From the IMG/VR virus record IMGVR_UViG_3300015371_000004, positions 51,950 through 115,949 of that record: DNA of 64,000 bases, one strand, 5' to 3'. Shown in pieces: positions 1,048 to 23,378 of this stretch. The stretch is from a virus. Within the stretch, counting starts at the first letter, position 1, and every line of letters begins with the position of its first letter. The notes under the pieces are model-generated. The model searched no databases, was not told where the DNA came from, and saw only the letters and a list, made by a program, of their open reading frames with translations. A program made the position numbers and the translations under genes.

Positions 1048-2162
1048 CAGATTCCTCCGCTGGAGAGCATACTGCCCCGGCGCTGAAAACGCCGCTGGAA
1101 ATTTTCGGCGTAGCGCTGGGCCGCCACGACTTCTCGATACGACCCGGGCTCGTCCGCCCGCCAGTACACCTCGTCGAGCGCCGTGAACCCCCAGACGTGC
1201 GGCGGCGCGACCTCGGTCAGCTTCCCGTGCCGGTTGAGCACGGTCGCCTTGGCGCCGCGGTTGTCGACGACGACGTACGCGTCGAACAGGTGCTTGACCT
1301 TCTCGAACGTCCGCCGCGGGCGCGTCCCGTACTGCTTGTCGTAGTTGGATTTGATGTAGCCGATCGGCACGTACCGGCCCTTGCCGGTCTCGGCCCGCTG
1401 CTTCATGTAGCGCTGGAGCGACCGGGAGACGGACGTGTTGATGTCGACGTCGGTGAAGCGCGCCTCCACCCGGTAGCCTGCCTGCTTGAGCGACTTGATC
1501 CGGCCCATGGCGCCGCCGCCGTAGCGCGCGGTCTCATAGTCGACGCCGCCCAGATCCTTCATGGTCGAATCGAGCACCATGTTGTACTTGTTCGCCCGGC
1601 CGATCTCGATCAGCCGATCGACGATGTCGTTCGACTCGTCGTGGAGGACGCTGGCGTTGCTGCCCGTCCACTCGGGGAAAAGCGTCTTGATGTCGTCGGA
1701 ATTGATGGCCAGCTTGTTCGAGTAGTCGAGGCCCGCCGCGGCCGTCGTCTTCCCCGAGGCCGTCATCCCGGACATCATCACGGCCACCGGATGCTGCTGG
1801 GGTTCGAGGGGGTTGGTGCGCGGCTTCCAGCCTGCCTTGGTGACCTCGTGGGTCAGCACCTTCTGAATGATCTCGTCGTGGAGCTTCTGGCGCTCGGTCG
1901 TGTACTCACCGGTCTTCTCGTCGAAGTACTTCGACTTGGTCCCGCGAGGGCCCCACTCGGCGAGCATCTTCCGGTTGGCCAGCTCGGCCTGCGCGATCTC
2001 CTTGGCGTACTTGGTCTCTTCCGGCGTGTCGGCGCTCTTGCGGACCTGCGCTTCGAGGTCGGTCGCGTGGCCCGGCTCGCAGTCGCCGACGCCTTTGTCG
2101 GCAAACTTCCCATCACGTGGATCGTGACAGGGGTTGAATTCGCTGAGGGGAACGAGGTGCAT
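1047..2162 (-). CDS. zeta-toxin-family P-loop kinase with N-terminal peptide tag
   Basis: VMMSGMTASGKTT Walker A, INSDDIK, LHDES, MVLDST, GYRVEA, RYVP motifs. Confidence 0.8.
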   Translation of the reverse strand: MHLVPLSEFNPCHDPRDGKFADKGVGDCEPGHATDLEAQVRKSADTPEETKYAKEIAQAELANRKMLAEWGPRGTKSKYFDEKTGEYTTERQKLHDEIIQKVLTHEVTKAGWKPRTNPLEPQQHPVAVMMSGMTASGKTTAAAGLDYSNKLAINSDDIKTLFPEWTGSNASVLHDESNDIVDRLIEIGRANKYNMVLDSTMKDLGGVDYETARYGGGAMGRIKSLKQAGYRVEARFTDVDINTSVSRSLQRYMKQRAETGKGRYVPIGYIKSNYDKQYGTRPRRTFEKVKHLFDAYVVVDNRGAKATVLNRHGKLTEVAPPHVWGFTALDEVYWRADEPGSYREVVAAQRYAENFQRRFQRRGSMLSSGGI

Positions 2163-2166
2163 CTCG

Positions 2167-3231
2167 TCAGGGGTTCCAGCGGAACACGGCCGGATTTTTT
2201 CGGAACTCCGCTCGACGGCGCTGCTCTTTCCGCACCTTCGATGGCACCGCAGCCCACCGCTTGGCCTGCTCAGGCGTATCGAACTTCTTCAGCACACCAT
2301 CCGCGTCTCTGACCTCCCACGGCCGTCTGGGCACGGGTGCCCACTGCAGCATCAGGCCGCCATTGTCTAGGCTGGGCAATCCGTCAAACCGACCAAAGCG
2401 CTCACGCGGCAGGTCCGTCCGCTCCGGCTCCTCACGTGGCTGCTTCCGTCGGCGCCTGAAGTTCTCGCGCGGCAGGTCAGTACGCGCTCCGGGGTCTGGG
2501 TTCATCAACGCCCGGGACAAGCGAGCCTTCGGCTGGTCAGGCTTCACGATCTCCGCCCTCGCATAGTCGCTATCGTTGATCGACGCGAACCTGACGATGA
2601 ACCCGGGCCGGTCGTACTTGCTGGCCTTCCGAATCGCGACGTCGTGGCCCGTCTGATTGGCACGTGCACGCGCCGCGGATGCCGCGTCATGGTAGCTGTC
2701 GAAATGTTCCCTCCCGGGCTGGTCGCCCCCACCCGTCGAGCAGAACTGCCCACCATCCGGCGACCCACCCGGCTTGTGGCAATCGTTGGCCTCGGCTACC
2801 TTCGCGGCGCCCGGGGCGACGACGGACATGAACGGATCCTTCTTCACGACGTCGATCGCCTGCTGCCGGACCTGCGTGAGCGCCGCCAGCCGCACCGACT
2901 CCTCGTTCCGGCCATGCATGACCCGGAGCGCCTGCAGCCGGTCCAGCTCCCGGCGCTGGGTGGCCACGAGGTCGTCCACGTTCATGCGGCCACTCTTGAC
3001 CAGATCGACGATGTCCCGGACGGCCGAATCAATGGGGCCCGGCTCGCGCCGTTCGAGGAGGGCCGTCCTCTTCTGGGCCTCCCGGTCCATGGCACAGCGA
3101 GCCATCGCCAAGGCGGCCGAGCCCGAGGGCCGCTTCTCCCGGCAGGGGCGGTCATCGGCCTGCTTCTGCAGCCACGAGTTCGAGGCGGCCGTGTTCGAGC
3201 CTTTGAGTGCTGCGACGTGGATGCGGCTCAT
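2167..3231 (-). CDS. hypothetical protein with internal EANDCH...GGQF tag
   Basis: long ORF; start moved to ATG 3231, 7 nt downstream of GGGGTAATAC. Confidence 0.7.
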   Translation of the reverse strand: MSRIHVAALKGSNTAASNSWLQKQADDRPCREKRPSGSAALAMARCAMDREAQKRTALLERREPGPIDSAVRDIVDLVKSGRMNVDDLVATQRRELDRLQALRVMHGRNEESVRLAALTQVRQQAIDVVKKDPFMSVVAPGAAKVAEANDCHKPGGSPDGGQFCSTGGGDQPGREHFDSYHDAASAARARANQTGHDVAIRKASKYDRPGFIVRFASINDSDYARAEIVKPDQPKARLSRALMNPDPGARTDLPRENFRRRRKQPREEPERTDLPRERFGRFDGLPSLDNGGLMLQWAPVPRRPWEVRDADGVLKKFDTPEQAKRWAAVPSKVRKEQRRRAEFRKNPAVFRWNP

Positions 3232-3247
3232 GTTTGGTGTATTACCC

Positions 3248-3775
3248 CTAGTCCGAGGGCCACGGGGCACGCTCAAGTTCGTATTCTTCCCGGTCTCGCT
3301 CCAGACGCGACCGATGGATCCCCCGCCGATAGCTGGCTTTCGTCTTCCCGCTCCAGCGCCGATTCCGGTGTTCCGCGCGCGCCTGTTGGCGGTACTTGTC
3401 GAGCAGGTCCTTGCTCATCGGCTTCTCAGGCGTGCCGCGAGCCATCGCGTCCAGCGCTTCTGGAGACATCCCTTTGAGGGCCCTAATTCCATGCCGCTGA
3501 AGCGCGGCCAGCTGGGCCTTCAGGTCCGCGTAGATTTCCTGCTGATTTTGCTGCTTGCGCGCGGCCTGCCGCGCCATCTTCTCAGCCCTCCGCTGCTGAT
3601 GGGCAGCGCCGCGCTGCTGGCGCGCCGCGCGCGCCCGGTCCACCGCGCTCATCCCGGTCGACGCGCAGAACTGCCCGCCGCCCGGCCCGGACGGATTATG
3701 GCAGGGGTTGGCTTCGCTGAACGGACGTCCCTCGCTGGCGGGCCATAGTTCCCACATACTCATCCCTCTCGACAA
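3248..3775 (-). CDS. basic hypothetical protein with N-terminal EANPCH...GGQF tag
   Basis: ORF directly after terminase; Arg/Lys-rich. Confidence 0.7.
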   Translation of the reverse strand: MSRGMSMWELWPASEGRPFSEANPCHNPSGPGGGQFCASTGMSAVDRARAARQQRGAAHQQRRAEKMARQAARKQQNQQEIYADLKAQLAALQRHGIRALKGMSPEALDAMARGTPEKPMSKDLLDKYRQQARAEHRNRRWSGKTKASYRRGIHRSRLERDREEYELERAPWPSD

Positions 3776-3777
3776 GC

Positions 3778-4656
3778 TCAGTACGTCTCCCCCGGAGGTG
3801 GGGGGTCGAGCGGCCGATGCCGAATTCGCACCCCACGCCGCTTCACGTCGTCCACCCGCTGGCAGACGAAGTCAGTCGTGTCCCGGATGGTCGAGGTCAC
3901 GAGGAGCTTGTAGGCCCCCGGAAACCGCGTCGTCAGGGACTTCATCAAGCCCGTGTGGATCCCCGGCGCCAAGTCCGTCTCGCCCGCCAGCATGAAGGCG
4001 GCCTCGTCCATGACCCCCATCATCGTGTGATACCCAAAGACGGCCGTCGAGATACTCGACACCGAGAGCCCATAGATCCGCTTGGGGAAGCGGGCCTTGC
4101 GCGCCCCCGCCTTGAATCCCCGGCCGACAAACCATGGCGAGTGCTCGACGCGCGCCTTGAACTCGGTGAAGACGACGTCCGAGGCCTGATCCTTCGAGGA
4201 CGAAGCGTTCAAGACCGCAATGCGCGAATTCGGGCCCAGCATGTAGAAGAGGTCCGCCCGCCTGAGGCAGACGAGCTTGTAGATCGTCCGGGCCATGGCG
4301 CAGCCCGCGATGAAGCCCTTGCCAGAGCCCGAGCCCGCCAAGATGTCGACCTCCCGGACCTGCGGCAGGTCGAAGTAGATCATCAGGTCGACCTTGTCCT
4401 GATTGACCAGCCCTTTGAGGTTCAGGTACTTGGCGCCGAGCATGAACTCCTCGACGTCGACCGGGATCTCGTCGTAGATGAGTTCGTAGACGGCTTCGAG
4501 GCCGGAGAGGTCCCCGGCCTGCGCGCGCTTGAGCAGCCGGTAGATCGCGGTGCGATCCGAGGGCGTCAGCCGCCGGATCTCGTCGAAGGCGTCGAAGCGC
4601 TCCTCTTCAGTCGCGTCCGGCGGGAGAGTCGGGGTCGGATTGAGGGATCTTGGCAT
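3778..4656 (-). CDS. terminase large subunit, ATPase domain only
   Basis: IPVDVEEF..KYLNL N-terminus, AGSGSGKG Walker A, SKDQASDVVF, VMDEAAF Walker B, LLVTST motif III; no nuclease domain. Confidence 0.7.
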   Translation of the reverse strand: MPRSLNPTPTLPPDATEEERFDAFDEIRRLTPSDRTAIYRLLKRAQAGDLSGLEAVYELIYDEIPVDVEEFMLGAKYLNLKGLVNQDKVDLMIYFDLPQVREVDILAGSGSGKGFIAGCAMARTIYKLVCLRRADLFYMLGPNSRIAVLNASSSKDQASDVVFTEFKARVEHSPWFVGRGFKAGARKARFPKRIYGLSVSSISTAVFGYHTMMGVMDEAAFMLAGETDLAPGIHTGLMKSLTTRFPGAYKLLVTSTIRDTTDFVCQRVDDVKRRGVRIRHRPLDPPPPGETY

Positions 4657-5080
4657 CGGCCTGCGTGCGGGTGAACATCTCGATCACAGCCCGGGCACCC
4701 TGCACGGAGACCCCGGCTTCCTGCAGCTTCTCGGCCGCCGTCCGCGCGCGCTCGGCCTCAGCCTGATCCACGTCCTCGTCGAAGTCGACGTTCTTGGCCA
4801 TGCGCGAGAGGAGCGACATCTCGTTGTAGATTTTCGGGTCGACCTTGCCTTCGGCCCGCTCTCTGAGCACCATCACGGCCACCCGCCACCGCTGCACGTT
4901 GAAGGTCAGCCACGGGATCTTGGCAGGCGCGCCGGTCGTCAAGAGACCGAGCGCCTTGTCCATCTCGGCTTCGGCCTCCTGCAGCTTGCGCGACCCCTCC
5001 TCGTCAGAGGGTGGCGTAAGCGCCGACTCGTTCGCGTGCGGGAGATCCCGCTCGACGACGGTCGCAATGGACTCGCTCAT
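4607..5080 (-). CDS. hypothetical helical protein, possible terminase small subunit
   Basis: position immediately upstream of TerL ATPase; function inferred from synteny only. Confidence 0.45.
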   Translation of the reverse strand: MSESIATVVERDLPHANESALTPPSDEEGSRKLQEAEAEMDKALGLLTTGAPAKIPWLTFNVQRWRVAVMVLRERAEGKVDPKIYNEMSLLSRMAKNVDFDEDVDQAEAERARTAAEKLQEAGVSVQGARAVIEMFTRTQADAKIPQSDPDSPAGRD

Positions 5081-5639
5081 GTTTGGGTACCGGAACTTCG
5101 CACAAAATGGATCGGTGGGTCAACAGCCGCGCCAGCATCTCGGCGTAGCGCTTGGCGATCCGGCTCTCACTGGCGGCAAAGTACGTGGCGGCCTGCGCCA
5201 GATGCTGCCGGACCCGTGGCGACGGCAGCCCGACCCGCTTGGCCGTCTCGGCCTGCGAGGACGTCTGCGAGAACTCCGCCAGAATCTGGGGCATGTGCTC
5301 GGGCGCATCCGGCCAGACCCGGCCCAGATCTCGCCGGACCTCCCAGATCATGAGTCTCGGATGGTCAAGGAGAAACGCTAGCCGCTCGCAGGCGCGCTGC
5401 ATGCGATGGCTGACGGCTTGCTGGGTGAGGTGCAGGGCCTCCCCAATTTGGTCCTGATTTTTTCCGGCGAAGAAATGCAGCTCGATGACGTCACGCTCGA
5501 CTGGCGGGATGGTCTTGAGCAGGCGGCGGACTTGGAGGAGGCGCTCCGGGTTGTGCTCGTCGGCAGGCCGCACAAACTCGATCCATGACCGCAGGTGGAA
5601 GGTCTCGGGATCGATGTCGGTGAGGCTCAGCTCGCGCAT
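5004..5639 (-). CDS. sigma-70 region-4-like HTH protein with a second HTH
   Basis: IPPVERDVIELHFFAGKNQDQIGEALHLTQQAVSHRMQRACERL, plus SQAETAKRVGLPSPRVRQHL. Confidence 0.7.
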   Translation of the reverse strand: MRELSLTDIDPETFHLRSWIEFVRPADEHNPERLLQVRRLLKTIPPVERDVIELHFFAGKNQDQIGEALHLTQQAVSHRMQRACERLAFLLDHPRLMIWEVRRDLGRVWPDAPEHMPQILAEFSQTSSQAETAKRVGLPSPRVRQHLAQAATYFAASESRIAKRYAEMLARLLTHRSILCEVPVPKHERVHCDRRRAGSPARERVGAYATL

Positions 5640-5643
5640 CGGC

Positions 5644-5838
5644 TCACTGAATCGGGAGATGCTGGAGGAGCCACCACCCGTTTTCGGGTAGCTCGGGATG
5701 CTGCTTGAGGTGACGCTCAAGAAGATAGAAGCCAAGGTTCTTGGCCGCGCAGGGCGTTTCCCCTATCGTCTCGAACATCAGCTGCTGTCCCGTCCCCTCC
5801 GTGAAGATCGTTTGGTACTTCCGGACCGGTCGACTCAC
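5644..5838 (-). CDS. hypothetical protein
   Basis: fills gap between NusG-like and sigma-4-like genes with GTGA overlap. Confidence 0.5.
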   Translation of the reverse strand: MSRPVRKYQTIFTEGTGQQLMFETIGETPCAAKNLGFYLLERHLKQHPELPENGWWLLQHLPIQ

Positions 5839-6329
5839 ACCCGCTCCAGCTCGTACAACGCCGCTCGTACCGAGATGTGCCTAGAGTGTAACCGAATTTG
5901 GACATCGGCACGATTTTGCCGTTTGTCGACCCGCTGCACCTTCCCGGTCATGCCCGTCCATGCCCCCAAGAGGAGGCGCACTTTCGAGCCCCGCCGGAGG
6001 AGCCGCGGACGCACCGACCGCCGGACGTCCTTCATCTGGGTCGGCGACAGCCGTTCGAAGGCCTGCCCGTCCGAGGTTCGTACAAGTTTGTCCACAAAAC
6101 GCGACCGCTCGACGCGCTGCACGTGCGCGTCCGGGCTCACCTCAAGGAAGGCGTAGCCCCCGTAGGCGTGGGCCCATGCGATGGTACCGGTGCAAGTTTC
6201 CGCAGGAAAGAAGACGCGAACGCCCGGCAGGTACCGGGCGAAGTCTCTCTGGATGTCAGCCGTGGGGACGTCGGACACCGTGTCCGCCAGCATTGCAATC
6301 ACCCACTCGCTGGCCGCACGCTTTGCCAC
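5835..6329 (-). CDS. nusG: NusG-family transcription factor (NGN + KOW)
   Basis: VFFP...YGGYAFLE NGN-like region; GSKVRLLLGAWTGMTGKVQRVD KOW motif. Confidence 0.75.
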   Translation of the reverse strand: MAKRAASEWVIAMLADTVSDVPTADIQRDFARYLPGVRVFFPAETCTGTIAWAHAYGGYAFLEVSPDAHVQRVERSRFVDKLVRTSDGQAFERLSPTQMKDVRRSVRPRLLRRGSKVRLLLGAWTGMTGKVQRVDKRQNRADVQIRLHSRHISVRAALYELERV

Positions 6330-6356
6330 TCTGAGGCGAGGACTTTACCACAACCG

Positions 6357-7079
6357 CTAGTGGGTCCCCTGCACAACATGCCTACTCAGAAGGTCAGTCA
6401 GGACGTTCGTCTGCCCGATTTGCAGCAGGGCGCCTGCATCTTTGGCGGGATACACCGGGGCGGATACCACGAACCCCTCGAAGGTTCCCATCTGCTGGAG
6501 CTTGAAGGCCGCGGCCCGACCGGGGAGGTCCGTGTCGAGGAGCGCCACCACCAGCTTGGCGTACCGACCAAGGAAGCGCCGCATGGGTCCCGCCACATTG
6601 GCGGTCAGGTTGGCGATCACGTCCGGCGCGCCCGCCGCGCGCACCCCGAAGTAGTCGAAGACGCCCTCCACCAAGACGACGCGCTGGCTCAGCCAGACAG
6701 CCGGGAGGGCTTCGTGCATGCCGAAGGCCCGCGGGTGGGCGCGGCTGACTTGGAAATCCGAATAGGCGTTCTGGCCTGCTTCGAGCTGGTCCGGAAGGAG
6801 CCTGACCTGAAACCCCGTCACACTGCCCATCGGATCCTTCAAGGGGAAGACGAGCCCGCCCCAGACCGGCCAGTGCTTGGTGGCCCACCCCAGAAAGGCC
6901 TTCGTGCCCACCGTGATCGGAGACAGGACCCCCACGTCATGGGCGGCAGCCACCTCCAGCGGGACCCCGCGCCCTTCGAGATAGGCGCGCGCGGCGCTCG
7001 CGTCGGGCGCCGACTGCAGGGCGTCAGAGGACCGTTTGACTAGCTCGCGGGTCCACGGACTTGAAGACGGTTCCGCCAT
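6357..7079 (-). CDS. DnaG-like primase catalytic/TOPRIM core lacking Zn finger
   Basis: ARAYLEGRG, LVFPLKDPMGSVTGFQVR, VLVEGVFD, LDTDLPG..AA, KDAG. Confidence 0.8.
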   Translation of the reverse strand: MAEPSSSPWTRELVKRSSDALQSAPDASAARAYLEGRGVPLEVAAAHDVGVLSPITVGTKAFLGWATKHWPVWGGLVFPLKDPMGSVTGFQVRLLPDQLEAGQNAYSDFQVSRAHPRAFGMHEALPAVWLSQRVVLVEGVFDYFGVRAAGAPDVIANLTANVAGPMRRFLGRYAKLVVALLDTDLPGRAAAFKLQQMGTFEGFVVSAPVYPAKDAGALLQIGQTNVLTDLLSRHVVQGTH

Positions 7080-7683
7080 GCAGGGACTCCTCGGCTTGGT
7101 AGGCCCGGTCAGCGTGGGCCAAAAATTCAGGGAGCTGGGTGACCATCAGGATCTGGAGCTTGAGCGACCGGCTCAGATCCTTGAGGAGCGCCCCGACACG
7201 GGAGAGGTAGCTGCCGTCCATCGAGACCATCGAGAACGGCTCGTCGAGCAGGATGAGCGGGGCCAGCCCCATCCGGCTGACCACGACCACCCGGAGAATG
7301 AAGGCCACCACAGACGCCGGGCCACCGCCGAAGGCATCGACGATCGGCTCGTCCACGTCTTCATGCCCGGGGCGATGGTGCACCAGATGCGGCTCCAGCC
7401 ACGGCTGGCGGAACTTCGTCTGGATGTCGAACCGGAACGTGAGGTCCTGATCGGGGAAGACGGTCTTCAGTCCGTAGGTGACCAGCCGCTCGACCTTGCC
7501 GACCGACTCGGCGCTCATGGTCTGGAGCAGCTTGTCGAGCGTGGCCTGCGTGACGGTCAGGAGCGTCGACTCCTGCTCGCCGCGGTCAACTTCGGCGGTG
7601 AGGGACGCGACGCGCTGCTGCTGTCCGCCGACGAGGCCGACGAGCCGTTCGGTTTGCTGGACGAGTTCGGGTAGGGTTTGCAT
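7024..7683 (-). CDS. SbcC/Rad50-like C-terminal half (signature + Walker B)
   Basis: coiled coil, FGGG signature, LILLDEPF, ILMVTQ. Confidence 0.8.
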   Translation of the reverse strand: MQTLPELVQQTERLVGLVGGQQQRVASLTAEVDRGEQESTLLTVTQATLDKLLQTMSAESVGKVERLVTYGLKTVFPDQDLTFRFDIQTKFRQPWLEPHLVHHRPGHEDVDEPIVDAFGGGPASVVAFILRVVVVSRMGLAPLILLDEPFSMVSMDGSYLSRVGALLKDLSRSLKLQILMVTQLPEFLAHADRAYQAEESLHGGTVFKSVDPRASQTVL

Positions 7684-8084
7684 CAGGGATGAACCTTGCA
7701 AGCGTCACGAGCGCAGTTTTGAAAAGAGGGTCCGTACTCGGCCGCGGATAGATATTTTCCGAGAGGTCAATCCGGCCGTTACACCAGAGCACGCGGTAGC
7801 GCGTACTTCGGACCTCCAACACAATGCCGCGGCTCTCAAACGGCAGCCATGGCCACCCGCGTGACACGACGTCCCCAACTTTGATGTGTCGGTCCTCGAC
7901 CGGCCGCGGATCGCTGGCGGCACTTTTCTTCATGGCTTTTTCTCGGCTAGCTGCTTCAGCGCCAGATCGCACAGCTCGACGAGGACCTTCAGGTCGACGC
8001 CCACCACCGCGCGCGGATGATTGACGACGCACGTCTTCGCGGTCTCGAAGATCCGCTTCAGCGCCTCAATGTCCGGCGCGGCAA

Positions 8085-8369
8085 TCACGCCAGCGCCTCG
8101 TTCGTGATCCGAATGACGTCGCTGCAGCCCGCAATTTCTTTCTTGATCGCGGCGTGCAGCTCGGCGACCGCCTTGTCCAGCTGGGCTTCAAGCGCCTTCA
8201 GCTCGACGTCGGCCTTGTCCGGCTCAACCCCCAGCGCGCGGATCTCCTGCTCGGTCTGCTCCAGCCGGGTCTTGGCCAGCGCCAGATTGGCCTCGGCCTT
8301 CGCGCGCAGCGTCCGCGCCTGACTCTCCAGCTCCCGCAGCTCGACAACTTTTTTGTAGGTCTGATCCAT
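8085..8369 (-). CDS. small coiled-coil protein
   Basis: heptad pattern; preceded by GGGGTATCAC. Confidence 0.65.
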   Translation of the reverse strand: MDQTYKKVVELRELESQARTLRAKAEANLALAKTRLEQTEQEIRALGVEPDKADVELKALEAQLDKAVAELHAAIKKEIAGCSDVIRITNEALA

Positions 8370-8392
8370 GGCGTCTCAGTGATACCCCAACC

Positions 8393-9151: not shown

Positions 9152-9342
9152 TCCACTCCTCGACGCTTCAGCTCCTCGGTGATGATCTGGATCCGGGTCT
9201 CGCAGAACTCCACGTTCTCCGCGCGCGGGTCCGCGTCGCGGTCCAGCTTGAACGCCTCCCGCAGCTGCACGAGCCGATCATCAGGCCAGATCGGCGACCG
9301 GTAGAAGGCGCGCGCGTCGTCGTGGCTGCTCCGTGTTTTCAC
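9148..9342 (-). CDS. hypothetical protein
   Basis: overlapping start/stop with neighbours. Confidence 0.5.
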   Translation of the reverse strand: MKTRSSHDDARAFYRSPIWPDDRLVQLREAFKLDRDADPRAENVEFCETRIQIITEELKRRGVE

Positions 9343-13304: not shown

Positions 13305-13307
13305 GCC

Positions 13308-14126: not shown

Positions 14127-14176
14127 AGGGGAATTCTCCAGAAAATTTTGTGGGCCGAAGTTGGCCGTCGTGGCAG

Positions 14177-14593: not shown

Positions 14594-14597
14594 CGGC

Positions 14598-15820: not shown

Positions 15821-17082
15821 GAGAGCAGCTGCTGGGCTTCCGGCCACAGCTCCACCTGACTCTCGGGCAGCGGCTGCACCGAGCCCCACGTCGACCCGGC
15901 GCTGACCGACCAGTGCATGGCCGCCCGCTCGCGCCAGCGCGCCACTGTCGGCGTCGTCACCAGCGTGGCGTGCAGCTCCCGTAGAAACCCCCGGACATCA
16001 GCGTCGACCGGCAGCTCGGCCGCGACGGCGTGCCGGGTCAGGATCATCCGGGCCCGCCACTGCTGGTCGAGCGCGCGCGCCAGCCACGCCAAGAGTTCGC
16101 CGGTCTCCTCGTAGACCCGCTGCTCCTGCGCTGGATACGCCGACAGCACGCCTTCATAGACCGAGGCCGACGGCAACCCCTGCGCCACTGCATACTCGTC
16201 CGGCGTGCTCCACGTGATCGGGTCCTCGTGAGCCGCCATGGCCGTCCGGACAAACGGCGTCGACAGGGAAAACTGGGCCCAAAATTTTCCGGACTCGGAT
16301 GGCACCGCGACTCGAAGTTCGGTCGGCAGCGTATTGAGCGCCGGGCCAGCCGCCGCAAAGGTCCAGTGCCGGTGGAACCGCCACACCGGGTTCAGGTAGA
16401 CGTAGATGCCATCCCGTTCCGACGAGGCCACGCTGGCTGCCAATCCCCCCGCGCGCTGCGCGCAGAGGTCAGCCCGGCGCCACTCCTCGTACGTCCTGAG
16501 CCAGACGGGATCTTGGCTCACGGTCTTCCACAGCTTCGACCGGCGCACCGCGCGCACCGCCACCGTCCCGAGCGCAGGCTTCAGGGCAGGCGTGAGCCGA
16601 TTGACGATCGCGACCTGCTCATCGACGACAGCCTTGTACTTGGCCTCATCGAACACGACACCGTGCCGATTGAGCGCCACCAGTACGGGCGCCACCACCG
16701 CATTTTCCACCGGGCGCGCCAAGGGCTGATCAACGAACATGGCTCGCTCGACCGCCGACTCCAGCGACGTCACATGCCAGTCCGCATCGACTCTCGCGAA
16801 CACCTGCTCGACGCTCAGGTCCTGCAGGTGGTCCCACGCGATCGACTGACGAATCCCCGGCTGCAACGTCCGCAGGACGTCGACCACGTCCCATGTCGAC
16901 ACGAGACCCCGATGCTCTGTGAGCACCGTCGCGCAGGCCATCCAGTCAGCCGACGTCCATTCCCGTGTGTCGCCGCCGTAGGCCTCGCCATCCCGGACTG
17001 CGACCAGATAGCCCGCCCCAGCAGCCAGACCCAGTCGGCCACCGATGCCCGTCAGCGCTTTCAGATCGTGGAAGGTCTTCAC
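15817..17082 (-). CDS. degenerate (apparently inactive) family-A DNA polymerase paralog
   Basis: PVLVALNRHGVVFD, GPALNTLP..LR, motif A position FSLSTPFVR, motif C position MILTRHAV, C-terminal SAGSTWG. Confidence 0.55.
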   Translation of the reverse strand: MKTFHDLKALTGIGGRLGLAAGAGYLVAVRDGEAYGGDTREWTSADWMACATVLTEHRGLVSTWDVVDVLRTLQPGIRQSIAWDHLQDLSVEQVFARVDADWHVTSLESAVERAMFVDQPLARPVENAVVAPVLVALNRHGVVFDEAKYKAVVDEQVAIVNRLTPALKPALGTVAVRAVRRSKLWKTVSQDPVWLRTYEEWRRADLCAQRAGGLAASVASSERDGIYVYLNPVWRFHRHWTFAAAGPALNTLPTELRVAVPSESGKFWAQFSLSTPFVRTAMAAHEDPITWSTPDEYAVAQGLPSASVYEGVLSAYPAQEQRVYEETGELLAWLARALDQQWRARMILTRHAVAAELPVDADVRGFLRELHATLVTTPTVARWRERAAMHWSVSAGSTWGSVQPLPESQVELWPEAQQLLS

Positions 17083-17579
17083 GCGAGCACCGGCTGAAGC
17101 GCGCCGAGCAGCGCCGCATGGTCCTTCTTCGTGATCCGGCCCGTCCGATCCACCCGCTCAATCACCGGGAGTAGCTCCGGCTTCGCCAGCAGGAACTCCC
17201 GCAGCTCACGGATGTAAAGGTCGTCGGCCTGCGTGGCGGCCTTCGCCGTCCGCGCGTCGAGCCGGTACTTGTTCTGCCACGGCCCGCCGCTGTCCACGCG
17301 GCTGTAGGCCCGATCGAGCTGGAGAGGATGCAACCGGCGGGAAGCAGCGCGATGTTTGTTCCGCGCGACACTTTGACACACGAGGTAGAGGTAGGACGTG
17401 AAGGCCGAGCGGTCCTTGGTGTAGCGGTCGAGCAGCCCGTACTTGTGCACGCGCAGGTAGACGTCCTGCACCATGTCATCAAGGTCCTCCTGCCCGATCG
17501 ACGTCACCGTCTTGAGGAAAGCCCGTATCTTGCCGTCGTAGCGCTCTACCAGTGCCTCTAGGGTCCGCGGTGCGTCCAT
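17079..17579 (-). CDS. ECF-like sigma factor, region 2 only
   Basis: LVERYDGKIRAF...DLDDMVQDVYLRV...SAFTSYLYLVCQSVARNKHR; no recognisable region-4 HTH. Confidence 0.75.
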   Translation of the reverse strand: MDAPRTLEALVERYDGKIRAFLKTVTSIGQEDLDDMVQDVYLRVHKYGLLDRYTKDRSAFTSYLYLVCQSVARNKHRAASRRLHPLQLDRAYSRVDSGGPWQNKYRLDARTAKAATQADDLYIRELREFLLAKPELLPVIERVDRTGRITKKDHAALLGALQPVLA

Positions 17580-17598
17580 AAGCGTCGCTCCTAACTGT

Positions 17599-17627
17599 TT
17601 AGACGTTGGGTTGGCCTAAATTGTTCC
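17599..17627 (-). promoter_or_regulatory. ECF-type promoter upstream of sigma-2 gene
   Basis: reverse complement GGAAC-N17-CGTCTAA, then AGGAG RBS. Confidence 0.75.
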
Positions 17628-17712
17628 CATGCTCCCCAGCGCCAAAAACGGACGATACCACGCCTTACTACTCAGAAAAAGACCTAAATTACGGTTTCGT
17701 GTAAATAGGGCC

Positions 17713-18063
17713 CTACCCCCAATTCGGTGGACTCGCCTGCCGTGTCAATCCGGCGTCCTCCGTGAACTCTCCAGTCGTCGGGTCAAACGTCAGGGCCTTC
17801 GGGTCAGGCGCCCACGTGATCACCGCCACACGGCCCGGGCAGACGTCGAGCGGGCCCATGTACGTGGAGCCCTGCCCGAGGTTCGGGAATTGGAGGAAGA
17901 GTTCCCCCAAGGGTGGTGCGCTCCCCAAGGACACGAAGGTGTGAACCTGCTCCCCATAGAGCAAGAGAACCGGGTACCGCCCGGCTGGCTTGCCCGGGTA
18001 CTTTTTCCAGACGGCCCCCACCGCCGCGCGCGCGAACTCTTCCGCCTCAGCTCGGTCCATCAC
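17713..18063 (-). CDS. hypothetical protein
   Basis: coupled to vWA gene. Confidence 0.55.
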   Translation of the reverse strand: MMDRAEAEEFARAAVGAVWKKYPGKPAGRYPVLLLYGEQVHTFVSLGSAPPLGELFLQFPNLGQGSTYMGPLDVCPGRVAVITWAPDPKALTFDPTTGEFTEDAGLTRQASPPNWG

Positions 18064-18614
18064 GCCCTGAGGTAGCCGCGAACCGCGGACGACAGCTGCT
18101 TCATCGCTGCAGGCAGCGAGAACTTGTCCCCTGAGATGACCTCCTTCGGGTCAAGCCCGAGGTCGACGATCAGCTGCTGTGGCAGGGTCTTGTTGCCCAG
18201 CGTCAGGAACAGAATGGTCCAGCGCCCCGTCTTCCGCTTGTCCTGAATCATCCGGCGCACCTCGTCGAGCGTGTACTCCGAGGAGTTCTCCTCCTGCCCG
18301 TCGGTCACGATCGCCAAGACGACACGGTTCTCGCGCGCGTTGCGTTCGAGGTCCTCGATCGAATTGCCGATCGCGTCATACAGCGCCGTCCCGCCCGAGG
18401 GGCAATAGTCGCCCGGCTGCAGCGGCTGGAACGTGCTGAGCGACTGGAAGTCGCGCGCAATGACCACGTCGTCCTCGAAGAAGGCGAGCGAGACCTTCTG
18501 GTCCACGGGCTCACGCGCCAGCTGGTCGATGAACTTGTTCACCGCCTGCCGCACCGGCTCCTCGCTTCCGCACATCGAGCCACTCTGGTCGATCACAATC
18601 CGCGTGAAAAACAT
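18060..18614 (-). CDS. vWA domain protein
   Basis: DQSGSM MIDAS, GGTALYDAIG, IVTDGQEENSS. Confidence 0.85.
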   Translation of the reverse strand: MFFTRIVIDQSGSMCGSEEPVRQAVNKFIDQLAREPVDQKVSLAFFEDDVVIARDFQSLSTFQPLQPGDYCPSGGTALYDAIGNSIEDLERNARENRVVLAIVTDGQEENSSEYTLDEVRRMIQDKRKTGRWTILFLTLGNKTLPQQLIVDLGLDPKEVISGDKFSLPAAMKQLSSAVRGYLRA

Positions 18615-18623
18615 CGGCTCCTC

Positions 18624-19037
18624 TCAGTCATCGTCGCATCCATCCCAGTAGCCGTCGAACTTCGCCTTGGCATTCGACAGGGACAGCGTCACCTGACGCT
18701 GGTCCAGCACGGCCCCACACTCCCAGCAGAGCCACGGCTCGTCAGGGGCTGCCATCCCCGGCGCCTGCGTGTCCTCCGGGTCCGTGAGGTGCGAGACCGC
18801 GTGGATCGCCTCGTCGAGGCGGCCCACCGGCACCCACCACGTCTTCCCGGCCTGCGACCACCGGCCCCCGAGGGCCTTGACGTACCCCTTGGCCTTATAG
18901 GTCCGCGTCCCCCGAATCGGGACGAAGTTATCAACCGTGACGTTCGGCGGCGGCGCTCCGAAGGGCTCATCGCAATTCGGGCAATACCAGCCCCCGCGAC
19001 GATCTCGAAACGGCTGACAGACCGGGCTACAAGGCAC
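18624..19037 (-). CDS. hypothetical protein with CxxC motifs
   Basis: TYKAKGYVKALGGRWS..KTWWV segment; preceded by GGGGTATTAC. Confidence 0.55.
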   Translation of the reverse strand: MPCSPVCQPFRDRRGGWYCPNCDEPFGAPPPNVTVDNFVPIRGTRTYKAKGYVKALGGRWSQAGKTWWVPVGRLDEAIHAVSHLTDPEDTQAPGMAAPDEPWLCWECGAVLDQRQVTLSLSNAKAKFDGYWDGCDDD

Positions 19038-19056
19038 CTCAGCCGGGTAATACCCC

Positions 19057-19455
19057 TCAGATGCGGATCTCGATCGTGCGAACCGAGACGAACAGGTAAT
19101 ACCCGTGGCGGCTGAACGGCAGGTACCCCTTCCCGATCGCCGAGGCCACGATTGCCCCGTCGAGGACCCGCTGGTTCTCCATGAGCGCGCCGGGACGGTG
19201 CGCCTTCACGACGCGGAACAGCCGCTTGGCCTGCGCCGTGTCGAGCGCGCGCGTGGGAATGATCTTGACCTCGGCGCCCTTCGGGTAACAGTAGCGCAGC
19301 TCCGGCCGGTACCGGTTGAGCGTCTCAACAAGGAGCTTGAGCGCCGACTGGCTCTCGGGCTGGGCCGTCTGCGGATGGGCCGCGCGCGCCAGCAGGTGCT
19401 TGGCCTGCCGGAGCACCGTCTCCGGCGACTTCAGCTTTACTGCGTGGGGCGCCAT
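19057..19455 (-). CDS. hypothetical protein
   Basis: 3' part of ORF 19057-19983 from ATG 19455. Confidence 0.55.
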   Translation of the reverse strand: MAPHAVKLKSPETVLRQAKHLLARAAHPQTAQPESQSALKLLVETLNRYRPELRYCYPKGAEVKIIPTRALDTAQAKRLFRVVKAHRPGALMENQRVLDGAIVASAIGKGYLPFSRHGYYLFVSVRTIEIRI

Positions 19456-20042
19456 AGGCTGCTCGCGTCGATGACAGAGTCTGGGGCAAAGATGATCGGA
19501 TCCAAGCCGTCCCAAACCCCGCAGCGCTTGTGCCAGATCAGCCACCCGCACGTCACCGAGTCCGTCGAGGGCTCGCCTCTGCTGTTCAGCCGATACCGGA
19601 TCCGCGGCAGCACGAGGTTCTGCGTCGGCGGGAGATCCCGCAGCAGCGACCGCCTCAGCCCACCCTTGAGCGGTTCGAGAAAGGACAGGCGTACGTGCAT
19701 GGCGATCCCGGAGGTCACGACCGGCCACGCGTGCTGGAGAATCGGCGCCGCGATCGAGAACGCCGGGTTGACCGCCACCCAGTCGACCATGCCCGGCAAA
19801 AACTGGCGCCAGTAGCGCGGGTCGGAGGCGTCCTCGTGGGCCATCGCGTCCCACTGCGGGTCGAGATCGTTCGTGATGAACGCGACCTCGGGATACCGCG
19901 CGCCAATGACCCTCGTCATCGCGCCAGCACCCACGCAGGGATCGACCACCGTCCCCTGAAACCGCACGTGGTCGCAGAGCCACTCGGTCACGAAGGGCGG
20001 GGTCTCGTAGAACTCGTAGTCTATTTGTGCCGGTGTGGCCAT
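19437..20042 (-). CDS. DNA amino-methyltransferase
   Basis: FYETPP, VDPCVGAGA motif I, NPAF motif IV, RLSFLEP. Confidence 0.8.
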   Translation of the reverse strand: MATPAQIDYEFYETPPFVTEWLCDHVRFQGTVVDPCVGAGAMTRVIGARYPEVAFITNDLDPQWDAMAHEDASDPRYWRQFLPGMVDWVAVNPAFSIAAPILQHAWPVVTSGIAMHVRLSFLEPLKGGLRRSLLRDLPPTQNLVLPRIRYRLNSRGEPSTDSVTCGWLIWHKRCGVWDGLDPIIFAPDSVIDASSLWRPTQ

Positions 20043-20219
20043 AGCGCGATCTCGCCGGATGGTCCGGTCTCCGCCGGTTCGGCGAGGATCTTCGCCGCCC
20101 GCTGCCGCAGGAGGTCCGCTTGGGCCCGGCGGCGCGCGGTGCTCTCCCGCAACCGCTCGTCCGCCTTCTGCGTGCTCTGGCGCTCGCGGAGGCGCGCGCC
20201 CTTGTCCTTCAGGAGCTGA

Positions 20220-20648
20220 TCAAGCCTTCGGTCTTCGTCCGTTTGTTGCGCCCGACGCCACCAGCCCATCTCGTCCTCCCTCTGGTATTACCCCGTCGCG
20301 CCGGTCACGTGGGAGCAGGAACGGATAGCGGTCGCGTCGATTCTGGTCAGGCGTCCCCCAGTAGCCATGGAAGGGATTGACGCATTCCTCATTGTCGCAT
20401 TCGGGCAGGTGGCAGGCCTCGAAGCCGTTGTGGTCGTAGAGCGCGGTGTTGTCCCTGATGCAGAGGGCGACCCGGAAGGCCGGGACGATCAGCTGTTTCT
20501 TGGTGCCCGGGTCTCGGCAGATCCAGATCACCGGGCGCCTGTAGCCGCCGAGCTTGATCGACATGGCGCCGGTCCAGTCCCAGCAGCTGAACCAGTCGGT
20601 GATGACCACCTTGTCCCAGAACCTGCGGCGGAGCGGCTCGTCGATCAC
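20220..20648 (-). CDS. HNH endonuclease
   Basis: RFWDKV, CWDWTG, ACHLPECDNEECVNPFH.YWGT..QN. Confidence 0.75.
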   Translation of the reverse strand: MIDEPLRRRFWDKVVITDWFSCWDWTGAMSIKLGGYRRPVIWICRDPGTKKQLIVPAFRVALCIRDNTALYDHNGFEACHLPECDNEECVNPFHGYWGTPDQNRRDRYPFLLPRDRRDGVIPEGGRDGLVASGATNGRRPKA

Positions 20649-20651
20649 CTA

Positions 20652-20927
20652 CTACTCCATCCGAACAAGCCCATCGACAGGGAGATCGAGCGTGAACTCC
20701 ACGCCCCCAAGGCAGTCATGGAGAAGCGCGGGCAGCTCGCGGCGCAGCTCCTCAGACATATCCCGGAAGTTGACGCAGTGCAGCAAGCTCAGCACGCTGT
20801 ACGCGCGGACGTCGGGGACATTGCCGATCACCTTGATGATTTTGTCGATGACGCAGATGTTAAAGCTGCCATCGCCAACCATTTTGCGGAGCGCGGCGAT
20901 GACCGCCGCCCGTTCAATGGCGTCCAC
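20652..20927 (-). CDS. hypothetical protein
   Basis: GTG 6 nt downstream of GGGGTATAAC. Confidence 0.55.
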   Translation of the reverse strand: MDAIERAAVIAALRKMVGDGSFNICVIDKIIKVIGNVPDVRAYSVLSLLHCVNFRDMSEELRRELPALLHDCLGGVEFTLDLPVDGLVRME

Positions 20928-21310
20928 GCGGAGGTTATACCCCAGCCCTAAGGCCACGTGTAGGGAGTCTTCCAGACCTCCCTGATCATCGTCGCGACCC
21001 CACCTTCGACCGTGCCCGTCCGCCAGCCTTGCTCGACCAGCGACGCCCACTCAATCGAGTGGTAAATTGTCTTTCGATACTCGTAGCGTCGAAACATCAG
21101 GCTTCCTCCCATCCGCCAAGGACCACCCACTTGCCGGTCGCCAGCTCTCGGCCGTAGTGGAGACCTCGGTGATTCTTGTACTGGAAGATTCGGAACCGTC
21201 GGCCGTCCTTCTGAGCAACACCGTAGACGTAGCGCCCGGACTGGCCGTCGGTACTGCGGTGAAGCGCGTCCCTGATTCCGTAAAAGTTCGTCACCAACGC
21301 AACCCTCCCT

Positions 21311-22027
21311 TCACTCAACGGGATCCCCGGCCACGACCTCGACGTTCGATCCGGCCGTGAAGACCCTCGTGCCGTTCGCCAGCTCCAACCCCACCCTCTC
21401 GTAGTTCTCGTCGTCAGCGAAGCCATAAGACCGGGCCAGCGCCGAGTAGGCGGAACGCTTGAACTTGTCTTTGCCAGCCCAGAAGACCCGGCCGACCGTG
21501 CCCTTCGGGACCTTCCGGCCCTTGACCACCTTGACCGTCCGGCCGACCTTGGGGAGCTTGGCCTCGGCCGCCGCGCGCGCTGCGCGGGCCCTAGCTCGCT
21601 TGCGCTCCGACCATGCCTCGTAGGCCGCGAGGACCTCGGGGGTCGCATCCACGCTGGCGCCGTTCGGGTAGGACCAGCCGCGGGTTGAGGCGTAGGTGAC
21701 GCGCTCGGTCTTGCCCTCCTCTGGATTCCAGACCACCGCGTAGAAGTCGCTGTCGTCGTAGCCGTTGTACTCGCCCGTCGAGAGCACCAGCCCCTCGTGG
21801 GTGGTCTTCATGTAGAGCGGGCCATGCACGAAGCACCGACCGCCGTCCCGGAGGTAGTCGGTCAAGCAGCCCTCGGAGAGGGCTCCAGATTTGTCGTAGC
21901 CTTTGGCCCGGTTGGGGCACTTGCTGTCGTGAGAGACCGCGCCCGTCTCGTGGCCGGGGTAATCATTGACCGTCTCGACGTTCGGCAGGCCAGCCTCGTC
22001 GGGTCCGGTCATCATACGGATCGCCAT
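21311..22027 (-). CDS. hypothetical phage protein (YDDSDFYAVVWN; KVVKGRKVPKG)
   Basis: first gene after ECF promoter; GGAGG RBS. Confidence 0.7.
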   Translation of the reverse strand: MAIRMMTGPDEAGLPNVETVNDYPGHETGAVSHDSKCPNRAKGYDKSGALSEGCLTDYLRDGGRCFVHGPLYMKTTHEGLVLSTGEYNGYDDSDFYAVVWNPEEGKTERVTYASTRGWSYPNGASVDATPEVLAAYEAWSERKRARARAARAAAEAKLPKVGRTVKVVKGRKVPKGTVGRVFWAGKDKFKRSAYSALARSYGFADDENYERVGLELANGTRVFTAGSNVEVVAGDPVE

Positions 22028-22046
22028 CTTTCCTCCTTCCACTTAT

Positions 22047-22091
22047 TTAGACGTACGGAAGGCAGGAAAAGTTCAATTACAGGACTGTAAT
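22047..22091 (-). promoter_or_regulatory. ECF-type promoter with palindromic operator
   Basis: TGAAC-N17-CGTCTAA; ATTACAG-GA-CTGTAAT at 22076-22091. Confidence 0.75.
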
Positions 22092-22092
22092 C

Positions 22093-22278
22093 CTAGATGG
22101 GGTGGTTGGGGGTATCGGGGAGTCGACCCAGCCGCCTGAGCCGGGCCAGCTCATCTTCCAGTTCGGCGTAGTAGGCGGCCTCCTCGGCCGTCCTGACAAG
22201 CCTCTGCCGACGGGCTTGGTCCAGCGTCATGCCCCGCTGGATCGCGGCCCACATCGACTCCATGCGGTCGGTGTCCAT
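22093..22278 (-). CDS. small helical protein downstream of zeta-like toxin
   Basis: ATG 5 nt after GGGGTAGTAC. Confidence 0.6.
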   Translation of the reverse strand: MDTDRMESMWAAIQRGMTLDQARRQRLVRTAEEAAYYAELEDELARLRRLGRLPDTPNHPI

Positions 22279-22286
22279 ACGTGGTA

Positions 22287-23378
22287 CTACCCCGTCTCCA
22301 GCGTCTTCTTCCGGGCCTTGAGCCGGAAGCTCTTCCAGAGCCGCTTGTTGTGGATGACGAGCGCCGGGCCGCGCGCCGAGGCCACCAGCCGCGGCTCCCC
22401 CAGCTTGTTCGTGTCCCAGAGCCGGAACTCCGTGAAGAGCCCCCGGCGGACCACCCGCGGGACCACCTGCGAGACACCCCGATGAGCCTCCCGGATGTAG
22501 GGGTGCGGCGTGTAGCGCCCCTGCCGTGGGCCCGGCTTGAGCGCCCCCTGATCGGACAACCGGAGCGCCAGTTCCACCGAATTCGTCGCGTAGTCGGCGA
22601 TCACCCGGTAGCCCTTCTTCCGGAACCCTTCGAGCTTGTCCGTCAGCTTGTCGATGCTGCTGTCGCCCACGCCATCGAGCACGATGTCCTGCCCGTTGCT
22701 GAGCGCCTTCATGATCACCTTGAACGTGATGTCGCTGCTCTCCTCATGGCTGAGCGTCGAGGCCCGGTGGTCCCCGCCCAAGACCATCGCCTGATACTCC
22801 GGGATCCGCGCTTTGACCGCGTCCGGGTTGGCGTAGACCGCGAGGCCCGTCGGCGGGAACTTCACCAGCCCGGTATTGACCATGGTCGACTTGCCACTGG
22901 CCGGGCCGCCGCCCGTCATGTAGACCGTCTGGTTGGTGCTCTTCGGGATGCCGCGTGTCAGCTCGTCCACAATCCGGTCGTGGAGCTTCAGTCGCTCAGC
23001 CGTATAGACTCCGTCCTTCGAGTATATCTGCTTGGTGTCCGGCGGCAGCGCCTCGAAGTCCTCGCAGATCCCGGTGCCCTTCGGCGCGAACCGGCCGCCG
23101 ATGCCCGAGCCTGCGGGCTCATGGCAGCGGTTGAATTCCTGAAGACGCCGGGTCCAGTCCCGCCTCCGGCTGAGCAGGAAGTCAGCCCAGCTGACGTTTC
23201 CCGTCCGGCGTTTCCACTGCTGGAAATGGCTCTGCAGGACCTTGAGGACGCCAACCGCCGTGCCGCTGTCCGCCGGTCTTCCCCGATGGGAAGCGAAGCG
23301 GCCAAGCCGGTCGTGGTAGTGGTTGTACTCCCGGGTCCGCGGCAGCTCGGGCTCGGAATTCGAGGCGGGAACAATCAC
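22287..23378 (-). CDS. second zeta-toxin-family kinase with two peptide tags
   Basis: MTGGGPASGKST, NPDAVK, HEESS, VLDGVG, GYRV, LWDTN. Confidence 0.8.
   Translation of the reverse strand: MIVPASNSEPELPRTREYNHYHDRLGRFASHRGRPADSGTAVGVLKVLQSHFQQWKRRTGNVSWADFLLSRRRDWTRRLQEFNRCHEPAGSGIGGRFAPKGTGICEDFEALPPDTKQIYSKDGVYTAERLKLHDRIVDELTRGIPKSTNQTVYMTGGGPASGKSTMVNTGLVKFPPTGLAVYANPDAVKARIPEYQAMVLGGDHRASTLSHEESSDITFKVIMKALSNGQDIVLDGVGDSSIDKLTDKLEGFRKKGYRVIADYATNSVELALRLSDQGALKPGPRQGRYTPHPYIREAHRGVSQVVPRVVRRGLFTEFRLWDTNKLGEPRLVASARGPALVIHNKRLWKSFRLKARKKTLETG

Follow-up and report, generated by a model that had tools for sequence, protein, structure and literature searches.

Protein injection together with phage DNA is known, although to our knowledge the rules by which the injected proteins are chosen, loaded and released are known only for T4 and a few jumbo phages. 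Here we analyze minus-strand genes of an uncultivated-phage contig (IMG/VR record IMGVR_UViG_3300015371_000004; 115,949 bp, 65% guanine plus cytosine, GC) in a window of 64,000 nucleotides that corresponds to contig bases 51950–115949. These genes share a short peptide tag built around the residues E-x-N-x-x-H and G-x-F, which most likely marks proteins carried in the phage head and the places where this cargo is cut free. Coordinates are those of the window, unless given as genome positions, which count along the whole contig.

The phage-type polyvalent proteins (Iyer, Burroughs, Anand, de Souza and Aravind 2017, PMC5512222) have ART-PolyVal, Zeta kinase, zincin metallopeptidase (MPTase), TopoIB, GNAT and RelA/SpoT domains in common with the tagged set. 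They also share with it, as do the MuF polymorphic toxins (Jamet et al. 2017, PMC5576092), the MuF and portal anchors, and for both it has been predicted that the proteins are processed and delivered along with the DNA. The tag of this phage occurs inside hundreds of polyvalent proteins, and neither PMC5512222 nor PMC5576092 mentions a linker, junction, boundary or header motif. The arrangement found here differs in that the tagged proteins are encoded by eight separate genes (15 tags occur in a syntenic relative, G001), with their own leader and header, and in that the MuF-like gene is separate and untagged. As in polyvalent-protein loci, the tag carriers adjoin a terminase half and lie among head-tail genes, and the effectors are of the polyvalent type, with two Zeta kinases in the window and one HExxH protein in the genome. 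Polypeptides with two to fifteen effector domains were not seen among the carriers of this phage, whereas P0007, P0011 and P0024, three tagged proteins of other genomes, have this form. Likewise, no N-terminal MuF is fused to a C-terminal toxin in this phage, whereas such fusions exist in relatives.

In T4 and SPN3US it is established that the prohead proteases (gp21 and gp245, respectively) are Glu-specific and that N-terminal propeptides serve in targeting (PMC10052503). The T4 targeting sequence and the phiKZ/SPN3US propeptides resemble the N-termini described below in being short signals (~10–20 residues) that end in hydrophobic-x-Glu on otherwise unrelated cargo, with a gp21-fold prohead protease encoded in the same head module. 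They differ in lacking sequence similarity to the tag, which has a conserved 20-residue part following the presumed cut, is also internal and repeated, carries Lys, Asp or Phe instead of Glu elsewhere, and is known from sequence alone. The pre-toxin motifs VENN of CdiA and DPxGL of Rhs are also short conserved peptides, placed where a constant delivery part gives way to exchangeable toxin modules, and are possible processing sites; however, they have other sequences, belong to a secretion system rather than a phage head, and border only the last module, whereas the tag repeats before every module. Encapsulin cargo-loading peptides are short and portable and bring unrelated enzymes into an HK97-fold shell, but they are usually C-terminal, remain uncleaved, have another sequence and bind one defined shell family. 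Polyvalent proteins, MuF toxins and T4/phiKZ-type targeting with Glu-specific removal are thus known, and what appears to be new is the header peptide and a split-gene form provided with a leader.

A repeated peptide tag and its carriers

The tag was sought with the regular expression E-x-N-x-x-H-x(1-12)-G-x-F over all six frames, with residue shuffles of the frames as control. Exactly five matches were obtained in the window, within the open reading frames (ORFs) 1047–2162, 2167–3276, 3248–3775 and 22287–23378, and these are the places at which the initial annotation had reported five copies of the motif:

Tag copy 1, 2103–2141, minus strand: E-F-N-P-C-H-D-P-R-D-G-K-F-A, short-loop variant; its Asn is residue 10 of Zeta-like kinase 1
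Tag copy 2, 2743–2793, minus strand: E-A-N-D-C-H-K-P-G-G-S-P-D-G-G-Q-F-C, internal, at about residue 165 of carrier 2
Tag copy 3, 3668–3715, minus strand: E-A-N-P-C-H-N-P-S-G-P-G-G-G-Q-F-C, N-terminal in carrier 3
Tag copy 4, 23088–23138, minus strand: E-F-N-R-C-H-E-P-A-G-S-G-I-G-G-R-F-A, second tag of carrier 4
Tag copy 5, 23295–23330, minus strand: E-Y-N-H-Y-H-D-R-L-G-R-F-A, Cys-less variant, N-terminal in carrier 4

The shuffled frames gave a mean of 0.03 matches in the window, against the five observed, which rules out a chance motif, and the core E-[FAY]-N-x-[CY]-H was never matched in them. Over the whole contig the expression matched ten times, in eight ORFs that are all encoded on the minus strand; five of these copies fall outside the window, within the head-tail and tail region of the structural module. 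The eight carriers are as follows, the start of carrier 3 being set at 3757 after the called product P0006:

Carrier 1, 1047–2162, minus strand: tag and Zeta-toxin-type P-loop kinase, 371 amino acids (aa); PF06414, E 1.2e-21; phrog_16619 'minor head protein', E 1.4e-14
Leader of carrier 1, 2142–2162, minus strand: M-H-L-V-P-L-S from the start codon; short and hydrophobic, of the type of M-P-x-F-L-V-P-L-H-E in G001
Carrier 2, 2167–3276, minus strand: two modules without assigned function, with the tag between them
Carrier 3, 3248–3757, minus strand: leader M-W-E-L-W-P-A-S..F-S-E, tag and basic helical body; no family match
Carrier 4, 22287–23378, minus strand: tag, tag and Zeta-toxin-type kinase, 363 aa; PF06414, E 5.8e-21; phrog_16619, E 3.5e-36
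Leader of carrier 4, ahead of tag copy 5, minus strand: V-I-V-P-A-S-N-S-E; the homologue P0043 begins M-I-V-P-A-S-N-S
Carrier outside the window, genome 18317–19321, minus strand: 334 aa, HExxH zincin signature, one tag
Carrier outside the window, genome 19328–20074, minus strand: 248 aa, one tag
Carrier outside the window, genome 38100–38621, minus strand: 173 aa, one tag
Carrier outside the window, genome 39054–40352, minus strand: 432 aa, two tags

Clearly separate modules were recognized in two of the eight carriers (2167–3276 and genome 39054–40352), the other six consisting of tag and one body. Half of the carriers genome-wide have no family match; two of the four in the window do have one, both being Zeta kinases. 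Inspection of all eight C-termini revealed no common C-terminal motif. The N-terminal module of carrier 2 (residues 66–147), encoded just upstream of the Zeta kinase gene, gave a sub-threshold match to TIGR02293 (E 0.018), a putative antitoxin family, and may be an immunity or antitoxin-like partner travelling with the kinase.

Selection on the peptide and spread of the tag

The tag copies share 54–87% nucleotide identity. Two identical 18-residue tags (genome 40131 and 54692) differ in 8 of their 18 codons, all synonymously, and such divergence beneath identical peptides indicates that selection maintains the peptide. A profile built from all ten copies, as the initial annotation had suggested for the genome and its relatives, was searched against 1.84 billion cluster representatives and matched 562 proteins at E<=1e-3, of which 82 reached E<=1e-10. 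The high synonymous divergence and the presence of the tag in 562 protein clusters exclude a DNA repeat and a duplication remnant confined to these loci, the outcome that would have counted against a functional tag.

A header without any biochemical role might nevertheless act as a recombination seam at which effector modules are swapped in frame, and the modules behind the tag do vary freely between related phages. However, DNA homology between the copies is poor while the peptide is kept under selection, the covariation and lineage-specific residues described below point to a structure and a partner, and separate genes need no seam. We regard this explanation as scarcely likely, the least probable of those considered here.

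Copy statistics were collected by regular expression in the best 150 of the 562 tagged proteins, which hold 317 copies. Successive copies are spaced by a median of 222 residues, and a median of 242 residues separates the last copy from the C-terminus. A copy lies within 45 residues of the N-terminus in 115 of these 150 proteins and near the C-terminus in only about four. This spacing and N-terminal bias suggest that the tag is a header placed ahead of a domain-sized module (~220 residues). Up to ten profile-matched stretches (11 by a looser regular expression) were found in P0007 (2992 aa), and six in P0011 (3105 aa).

Every named database match among the tagged proteins is a 'hypothetical protein', and among bacterial genomes only one tagged locus was found, in a Bifidobacterium (L055). 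Seven tag segments gave no Pfam match at E<=10, no NCBIfam match or PHROG model covers the tag, and no PDB sequence matched it below E 0.85. Searches of the open full-text literature for the motif strings, and of the polyvalent-protein and MuF-toxin papers, found no description of the tag. A megablast search of the window against cultured phages yielded nothing usable.

Cargo modules and head anchors

A Pfam tally over 111 tagged proteins comprised ART-PolyVal (17), GNAT (13), exotoxin-type ART (8), Zeta toxin (6), PI3/PI4-kinase-like (5) and topoisomerase IB (4) domains, in addition to RelA/SpoT, Fic, ParB-like nuclease, SAM lyase, 2'-5' RNA ligase, Phage_Mu_F (2) and XkdF-type prohead protease (2). 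Together with selection at the peptide level and the 562 clusters, these unrelated domains bear out the earlier proposal of a portable tag on diverse cargo. The match of both kinases to phrog_16619, a 'minor head protein' profile of 1440 positions, was a first hint that relatives hold this kinase within a large virion protein. In the relative P0192 a portal protein is fused through the tag to a Zeta kinase, in P0015 a portal is followed by six tags, and P0102 joins an RNA ligase, an XkdF protease, a tag and a kinase. Moreover, MuF domains with tags on both sides occur in P0065, P0157, P0158, P0173, P0178 and P0024. These fusions indicate that, in relatives, the tag and its cargo, such as the Zeta kinase, are covalently joined to head-internal proteins.

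Since a kinase fused to the portal needs to be released to act in the host, and since the tag is the only conserved element of the linker, the header is likely to be, or to adjoin, a processing site, and this is the main argument for our proposal. A header of ~30 residues, consisting of a short hydrophobic strand and [L/V/I/F]-x-[E]-x-N-[P/D]-[C/Y/N]-H-x-P-x-G-(loop)-G-G-x-F-[C/A/T], would precede every effector module carried in tailed-phage heads. In many phages the modules form a single giant polyvalent chain or are attached to the portal, to MuF or to the prohead protease, whereas in this lineage the string would be broken into eight separate genes, each opened by leader and header. Leader and header would carry the protein into the procapsid, and a gp21-fold protease, apparently cutting after hydrophobic-x-Glu, would clip at the header and thereby release the modules from anchor or leader for delivery with the DNA; a tagged zincin peptidase might be the cutter instead. 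Taken as a whole, the explanation in which leader and header load the cargo and the prohead protease clips at the header is, in our estimation, about as probable as all others combined. As to the putative direction of cargo into the head, which the initial annotation had also put forward, the portal, MuF and XkdF fusions and the placement in head modules tie the tag to the head.

If each module indeed bears a header, the header offers a sequence-only way to list the injected arsenal of a phage, which here would comprise two Zeta-type kinases, one zincin and further proteins without family match. It also provides a defined peptide for loading and cleavage tests.

Tag anatomy, covariation and predicted fold

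The positions of the tag were numbered from Asn (position 0) over the 317 copies; Asn and His were fixed by the counting pattern, yet they are invariant in independent alignments as well:

Position -4: hydrophobic in 81%
Position -2: E in 163, K in 100
Position 0: N in 317/317
Position +1: P in 47%, D in 29%; also Ser, Gln, Glu, Thr, His and Arg
Position +2: C in 186, Y in 57, N in 47
Position +3: H in 317/317
Position +5: P in 88%
After the loop: G-G-x-F, then a Gly/Ser-rich linker

The residue at +2 and the one after Phe are strongly coupled, with C/C in 173 copies, [Y/N/H] with [A/T] in ~106, C with another residue in 13, and Y/C in none. The switch between Cys and non-Cys also occurs between tags of one protein (P0007, P0015, P0028 and P0048). 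This covariation implies that both positions must touch, through metal binding, a disulfide, or packing of an aromatic on a small residue, and the co-varying cysteines thus show that the tag folds back on itself. The coupled pair is what would be expected of a metal site or disulfide, as proposed earlier for the Cys and His residues; about one third of the copies have no cysteines.

Both subtypes were observed in adjacent head-module genes of a GC-51% contig (IMGVR_UViG_3300027887_000015, L004, 1151–10129), namely a Cys-type K-x-N-[D/E/P]-C-H…G-G-Q-F-C and a Tyr-type K-Y-N-P-Y-H-D-A-K-G-R-F-T. With the Tyr-type tag, tblastn gave weak matches at FR725450.1 5638–5697 and MW202897.1 16844–16909 (E 0.02 and 2), which fall in genes annotated as portals, in the Nitrososphaera provirus Pro-Nvie1 and in an uncultured phage. 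The weak Pro-Nvie1 match hints that the header may extend to archaeal viruses.

The same coupling would be expected if the header were never cut, being instead a metal-binding (Cys-His-Cys, perhaps with Glu) or aromatic-packed hairpin kept on each module, which might hold the module to the packaged DNA or inner head or serve as a handle for feeding it through portal and tail at ejection. A low-confidence AlphaFold (AF2) model of the tag joins C-H with Q-F in a small two-residue bridge; N, H, P and G-x-F are kept across lineages regardless of the flanks; one header per module, fused or split, suggests that each module needs its own; and the header occurs whatever the portal and capsid family. 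On the other hand, modules fused to portal or protease still need release to act in the host, about a third of the copies are devoid of cysteines, the isolated tag folds at low confidence, and the Pfam and PDB searches matched the tag to no DNA- or metal-binding family. We consider such an uncut hairpin unlikely.

The two invariant residues also admit a self-cleaving junction, in which Asn, aided by His, would cyclise and break the chain with no protease needed. Asn-type autocleavage has precedents in the N-P-T-H site of FlhB/YscU, in intein C-terminal cleavage and in capsid Asn autocleavage. By analogy with these, N-P-x-H is found in 47% of copies, and self-cleavage would explain the independence from capsid and protease lineage. 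Nevertheless, Pro after Asn is not conserved (Asp stands there in 29%), Thr is not used next as in the invariant N-P-T-H of FlhB/YscU, the motif lies in a low-complexity Gly/Ser/Pro-rich linker rather than a folded domain, and tagged proteins frequently bring their own peptidases. Self-cleavage is accordingly a very improbable explanation in our view.

Position -2 behaves differently from the core. It is nearly uniform within a protein and differs between proteins, being all E, K, D or F; all ten tags of this phage carry Glu. A residue constant within a genome and variable between genomes is what would be expected of a specificity determinant recognized by a partner that evolves along with it. 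Beside a near-universal core, such a lineage-specific residue constitutes a natural experiment on protease-substrate co-evolution. A role of Glu as fourth metal ligand was considered and rejected: the association of Glu with Cys vanishes when examined protein by protein, and it is a lineage effect, given that P0007 joins Lys with Cys/Cys throughout.

The prohead protease and candidate cut sites

The phage encodes a 531-aa protein at genome 44064–45659, whose N-terminal 320 residues were aligned with 27 relatives, revealing invariant His84 and Ser152. An AF2 model of the protease domain (predicted local distance difference test, pLDDT, 80.6) found T4 gp21 as its best PDB fold in Foldseek (5jbl, E 6e-5, probability 1.0), followed by herpesvirus proteases. 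On this model, the protein is a prohead serine protease of the T4 gp21 (assemblin) fold fused to a helical and acidic scaffold-like tail, so that the phage carrying the tags has its own candidate cutter.

In nearly all of the 28 sequences that reach this point, the protease domain ends in D-V-V-T-x-[P/A]-[A/G]-[R/A]-G-G-x-F-x-x-L-x-E-S. Both protease tails contain R-F-R-E-S, in which F-R-E-S matches the F-R-E of four tags of this phage. The capsid family, in turn, shows conservation of L-x-E-A-N…F-G-x-L-L-R some 40 residues into the protein, tag-less relatives included (33 loci, L022–L054), which reads F-Y-E-A-N here (residues ~37–42) and L-H-E-T-N in G001, and is probably the maturation cut site. 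L-x-E-S and L-x-E-A-N stand at places typical of maturation cuts and suggest a hydrophobic-x-Glu specificity. The tags agree with it, being h-x-E (h, hydrophobic) in this phage, with F-R-E four times, and L-[H/Y]-E in G001, whose capsid site is L-H-E. Of the 33 loci that share the capsid family, only G001 has tags nearby. As a separate observation, residues ~184–200 of the protease read P-A-[R/G]-G-G-x-F and then L-x-E-S. Within this stretch, P-A-G…G-G-x-F is similar to the C-terminal half of the tag, perhaps by chance or perhaps because the tag mimics the protease's own tail.

Cleavage after Glu, the mechanism first proposed for these tags, therefore has circumstantial support here, from the gp21-fold protease, L-x-E-S, L-x-E-A-N and the Glu of all ten tags, and fails as a rule for the tag in general, given Lys, Asp or Phe elsewhere. 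For this lineage, loading followed by a cut after Glu is plausible, if unproven, and it is not universal.

The cutter might alternatively be a zincin-like MPTase travelling with the polyvalent proteins, the header being its recognition or cleavage site rather than that of the prohead serine protease. Tagged proteins contain HExxH 12 times as often as expected (48 observed versus 3.85 in shuffles), and a tagged HExxH protein is present in this genome, in G001 (39% identity between the two) and in four of the five other tag-bearing loci examined, none having been seen in the L004 stretch or at the Bifidobacterium locus. Processing of polyvalent proteins by an MPTase has been predicted (PMC5512222). 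However, only 36 of the 150 tagged proteins contain HExxH, the zincin could be just another effector, and its domain here has no Pfam, PHROG or PDB match that would support the fold; the lineage-specific residue at -2 is compatible with either protease. A zincin cutter strikes us as decidedly unlikely, somewhat more so than the uncut hairpin.

Several observations weigh against loading by the header followed by clipping with the prohead protease. The most conserved residues (N, H, P and G-x-F) lie C-terminal to the proposed cut and would be kept on the mature protein, and a conserved part after the cut, unlike the T4 targeting sequence, suggests a further role. The tags occur with at least three unrelated portal and capsid families, which argues against a specific docking partner on the capsid. 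The agreement of tag and protease site rests on two genomes (F-x-E here, L-H-E in G001), and h-x-E is a common tripeptide. Uniform Lys, Asp or Phe at -2 in other lineages means that a Glu-specific cut cannot be the general mechanism. Carrier 4 is encoded apart from the structural module, at a distance of 18 kb from its genes. The AF2 model of a 44-residue tag, built with 49 sequences, reached a pLDDT of only 62. Finally, tblastn with two tag variants found no usable match among cultured phages in a collection of 50,697 records.

A more far-reaching version is that leader and N-x-C-H…G-G-Q-F-C header form a general, transplantable address in two parts: the hydrophobic leader would load any protein into the procapsid, and a Cys-His-Cys knuckle would dock the prohead protease, which would cut at a lineage-specific residue (Glu here). 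We hold this more elaborate version to be possible, though tentative. If it were true, sequence would suffice to list all the effectors that thousands of uncultivated phages deliver from their virions, and such heads could be filled with proteins of any choice.

Leaders and split-gene lineages

Leader plus h-x-E opens six of the eight carriers, as expected of a gp21-type N-terminal peptide. The syntenic relative G001 is an IMG/VR contig of 129,940 bp, rated 100% complete, with 15 tags. Twelve of its genes start with M-P-x-F-L-[V/I/R]-P-[L/I]-[H/Y]-E followed by the tag, and all 12 occurrences of M-P-x-F-L-x-P-L in G001 start a tagged gene, none being found elsewhere in six frames. The G002 lineage (L005 and L008) has 13 tags in 49 kb, with leaders of the form M-x-I-V-P-N-S-W-G-S…E, and the commonest N-terminus among the database matches is M-[I/R]-L-[V/I]-P-[N/D]-S-…-L-R-E. 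The carriers of this phage use both leader forms: the short one, M-H-L-V-P-L-S-E, on kinase 1, and long ones that read M-R-L-I-P-A-S-N-N-D…F-R-E, V-I-V-P-A-S-N-S-E…T-R-E and, twice, L-D-W-R-L-Q-P-S-S-G-G-F-R-E. Taken with the long tagged polypeptides, this comparison shows polyvalent chains and sets of small tagged genes as two apparent forms of one system.

Gene neighborhood and split terminase

The neighborhood was annotated by PHROG and Pfam scans. In minus-strand order, the ATPase half of the terminase is followed by three tagged genes, a short plus-strand cassette, the nuclease half of the terminase and the portal; then come the MuF-like gene, a glycosyltransferase, the protease-scaffold protein and a Mu gpT-like capsid protein, and after the capsid two tagged genes among head-tail genes, the tape measure and two further tagged genes. 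The untagged landmarks are:

Terminase ATPase half, window 3778–4656, minus strand: 292 aa; the island of tagged genes starts directly downstream
Terminase nuclease half, genome 50239–51117, minus strand: 1,710 to 832 bases ahead of the window start
Portal, genome 48165–50402, minus strand: from the PHROG and Pfam scans
MuF-like gene, genome 47312–48250, minus strand: C-terminal CPIC…HPNCRC; Pfam E only 0.025; separate and untagged
Protease-scaffold protein, genome 44064–45659 (L003:8064–9659), minus strand: 531 aa
Mu gpT-like capsid protein, genome 42420–43469, minus strand: from the PHROG and Pfam scans

Three carriers had been placed directly downstream of the terminase, which is correct, with the qualification that the gene at 3778–4656 supplies the ATPase half alone. 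The ATPase and the nuclease of the large terminase are encoded by separate genes, between which the tagged genes form a variable island, and the same arrangement was found in G001 (65636–66517 and 78981–79775) and in the G002 lineage (L005 6905–7687; L008 8779–9633). In these three related phages the gap between the terminase halves is filled by tagged genes, over 4.6 kb here and ~12 kb in G001, and the tagged array of the G002 lineage extends for at least 12 kb, up to the fragment end. In an unrelated GC-51% phage, which has other portal and capsid families, the tagged genes are flanked by the portal on one side and by the genes for the minor head protein, protease and capsid on the other. 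G001 has an additional tagged gene of 269 aa (81858–82667; L018:1858–2667) between portal and MuF, overlapping the portal stop, where this phage has none. Directly upstream of the terminase ATPase gene, window 5004–5735 encodes a 243-aa protein that consists only of two sigma-70 region-4 domains (Pfam E 1e-15).

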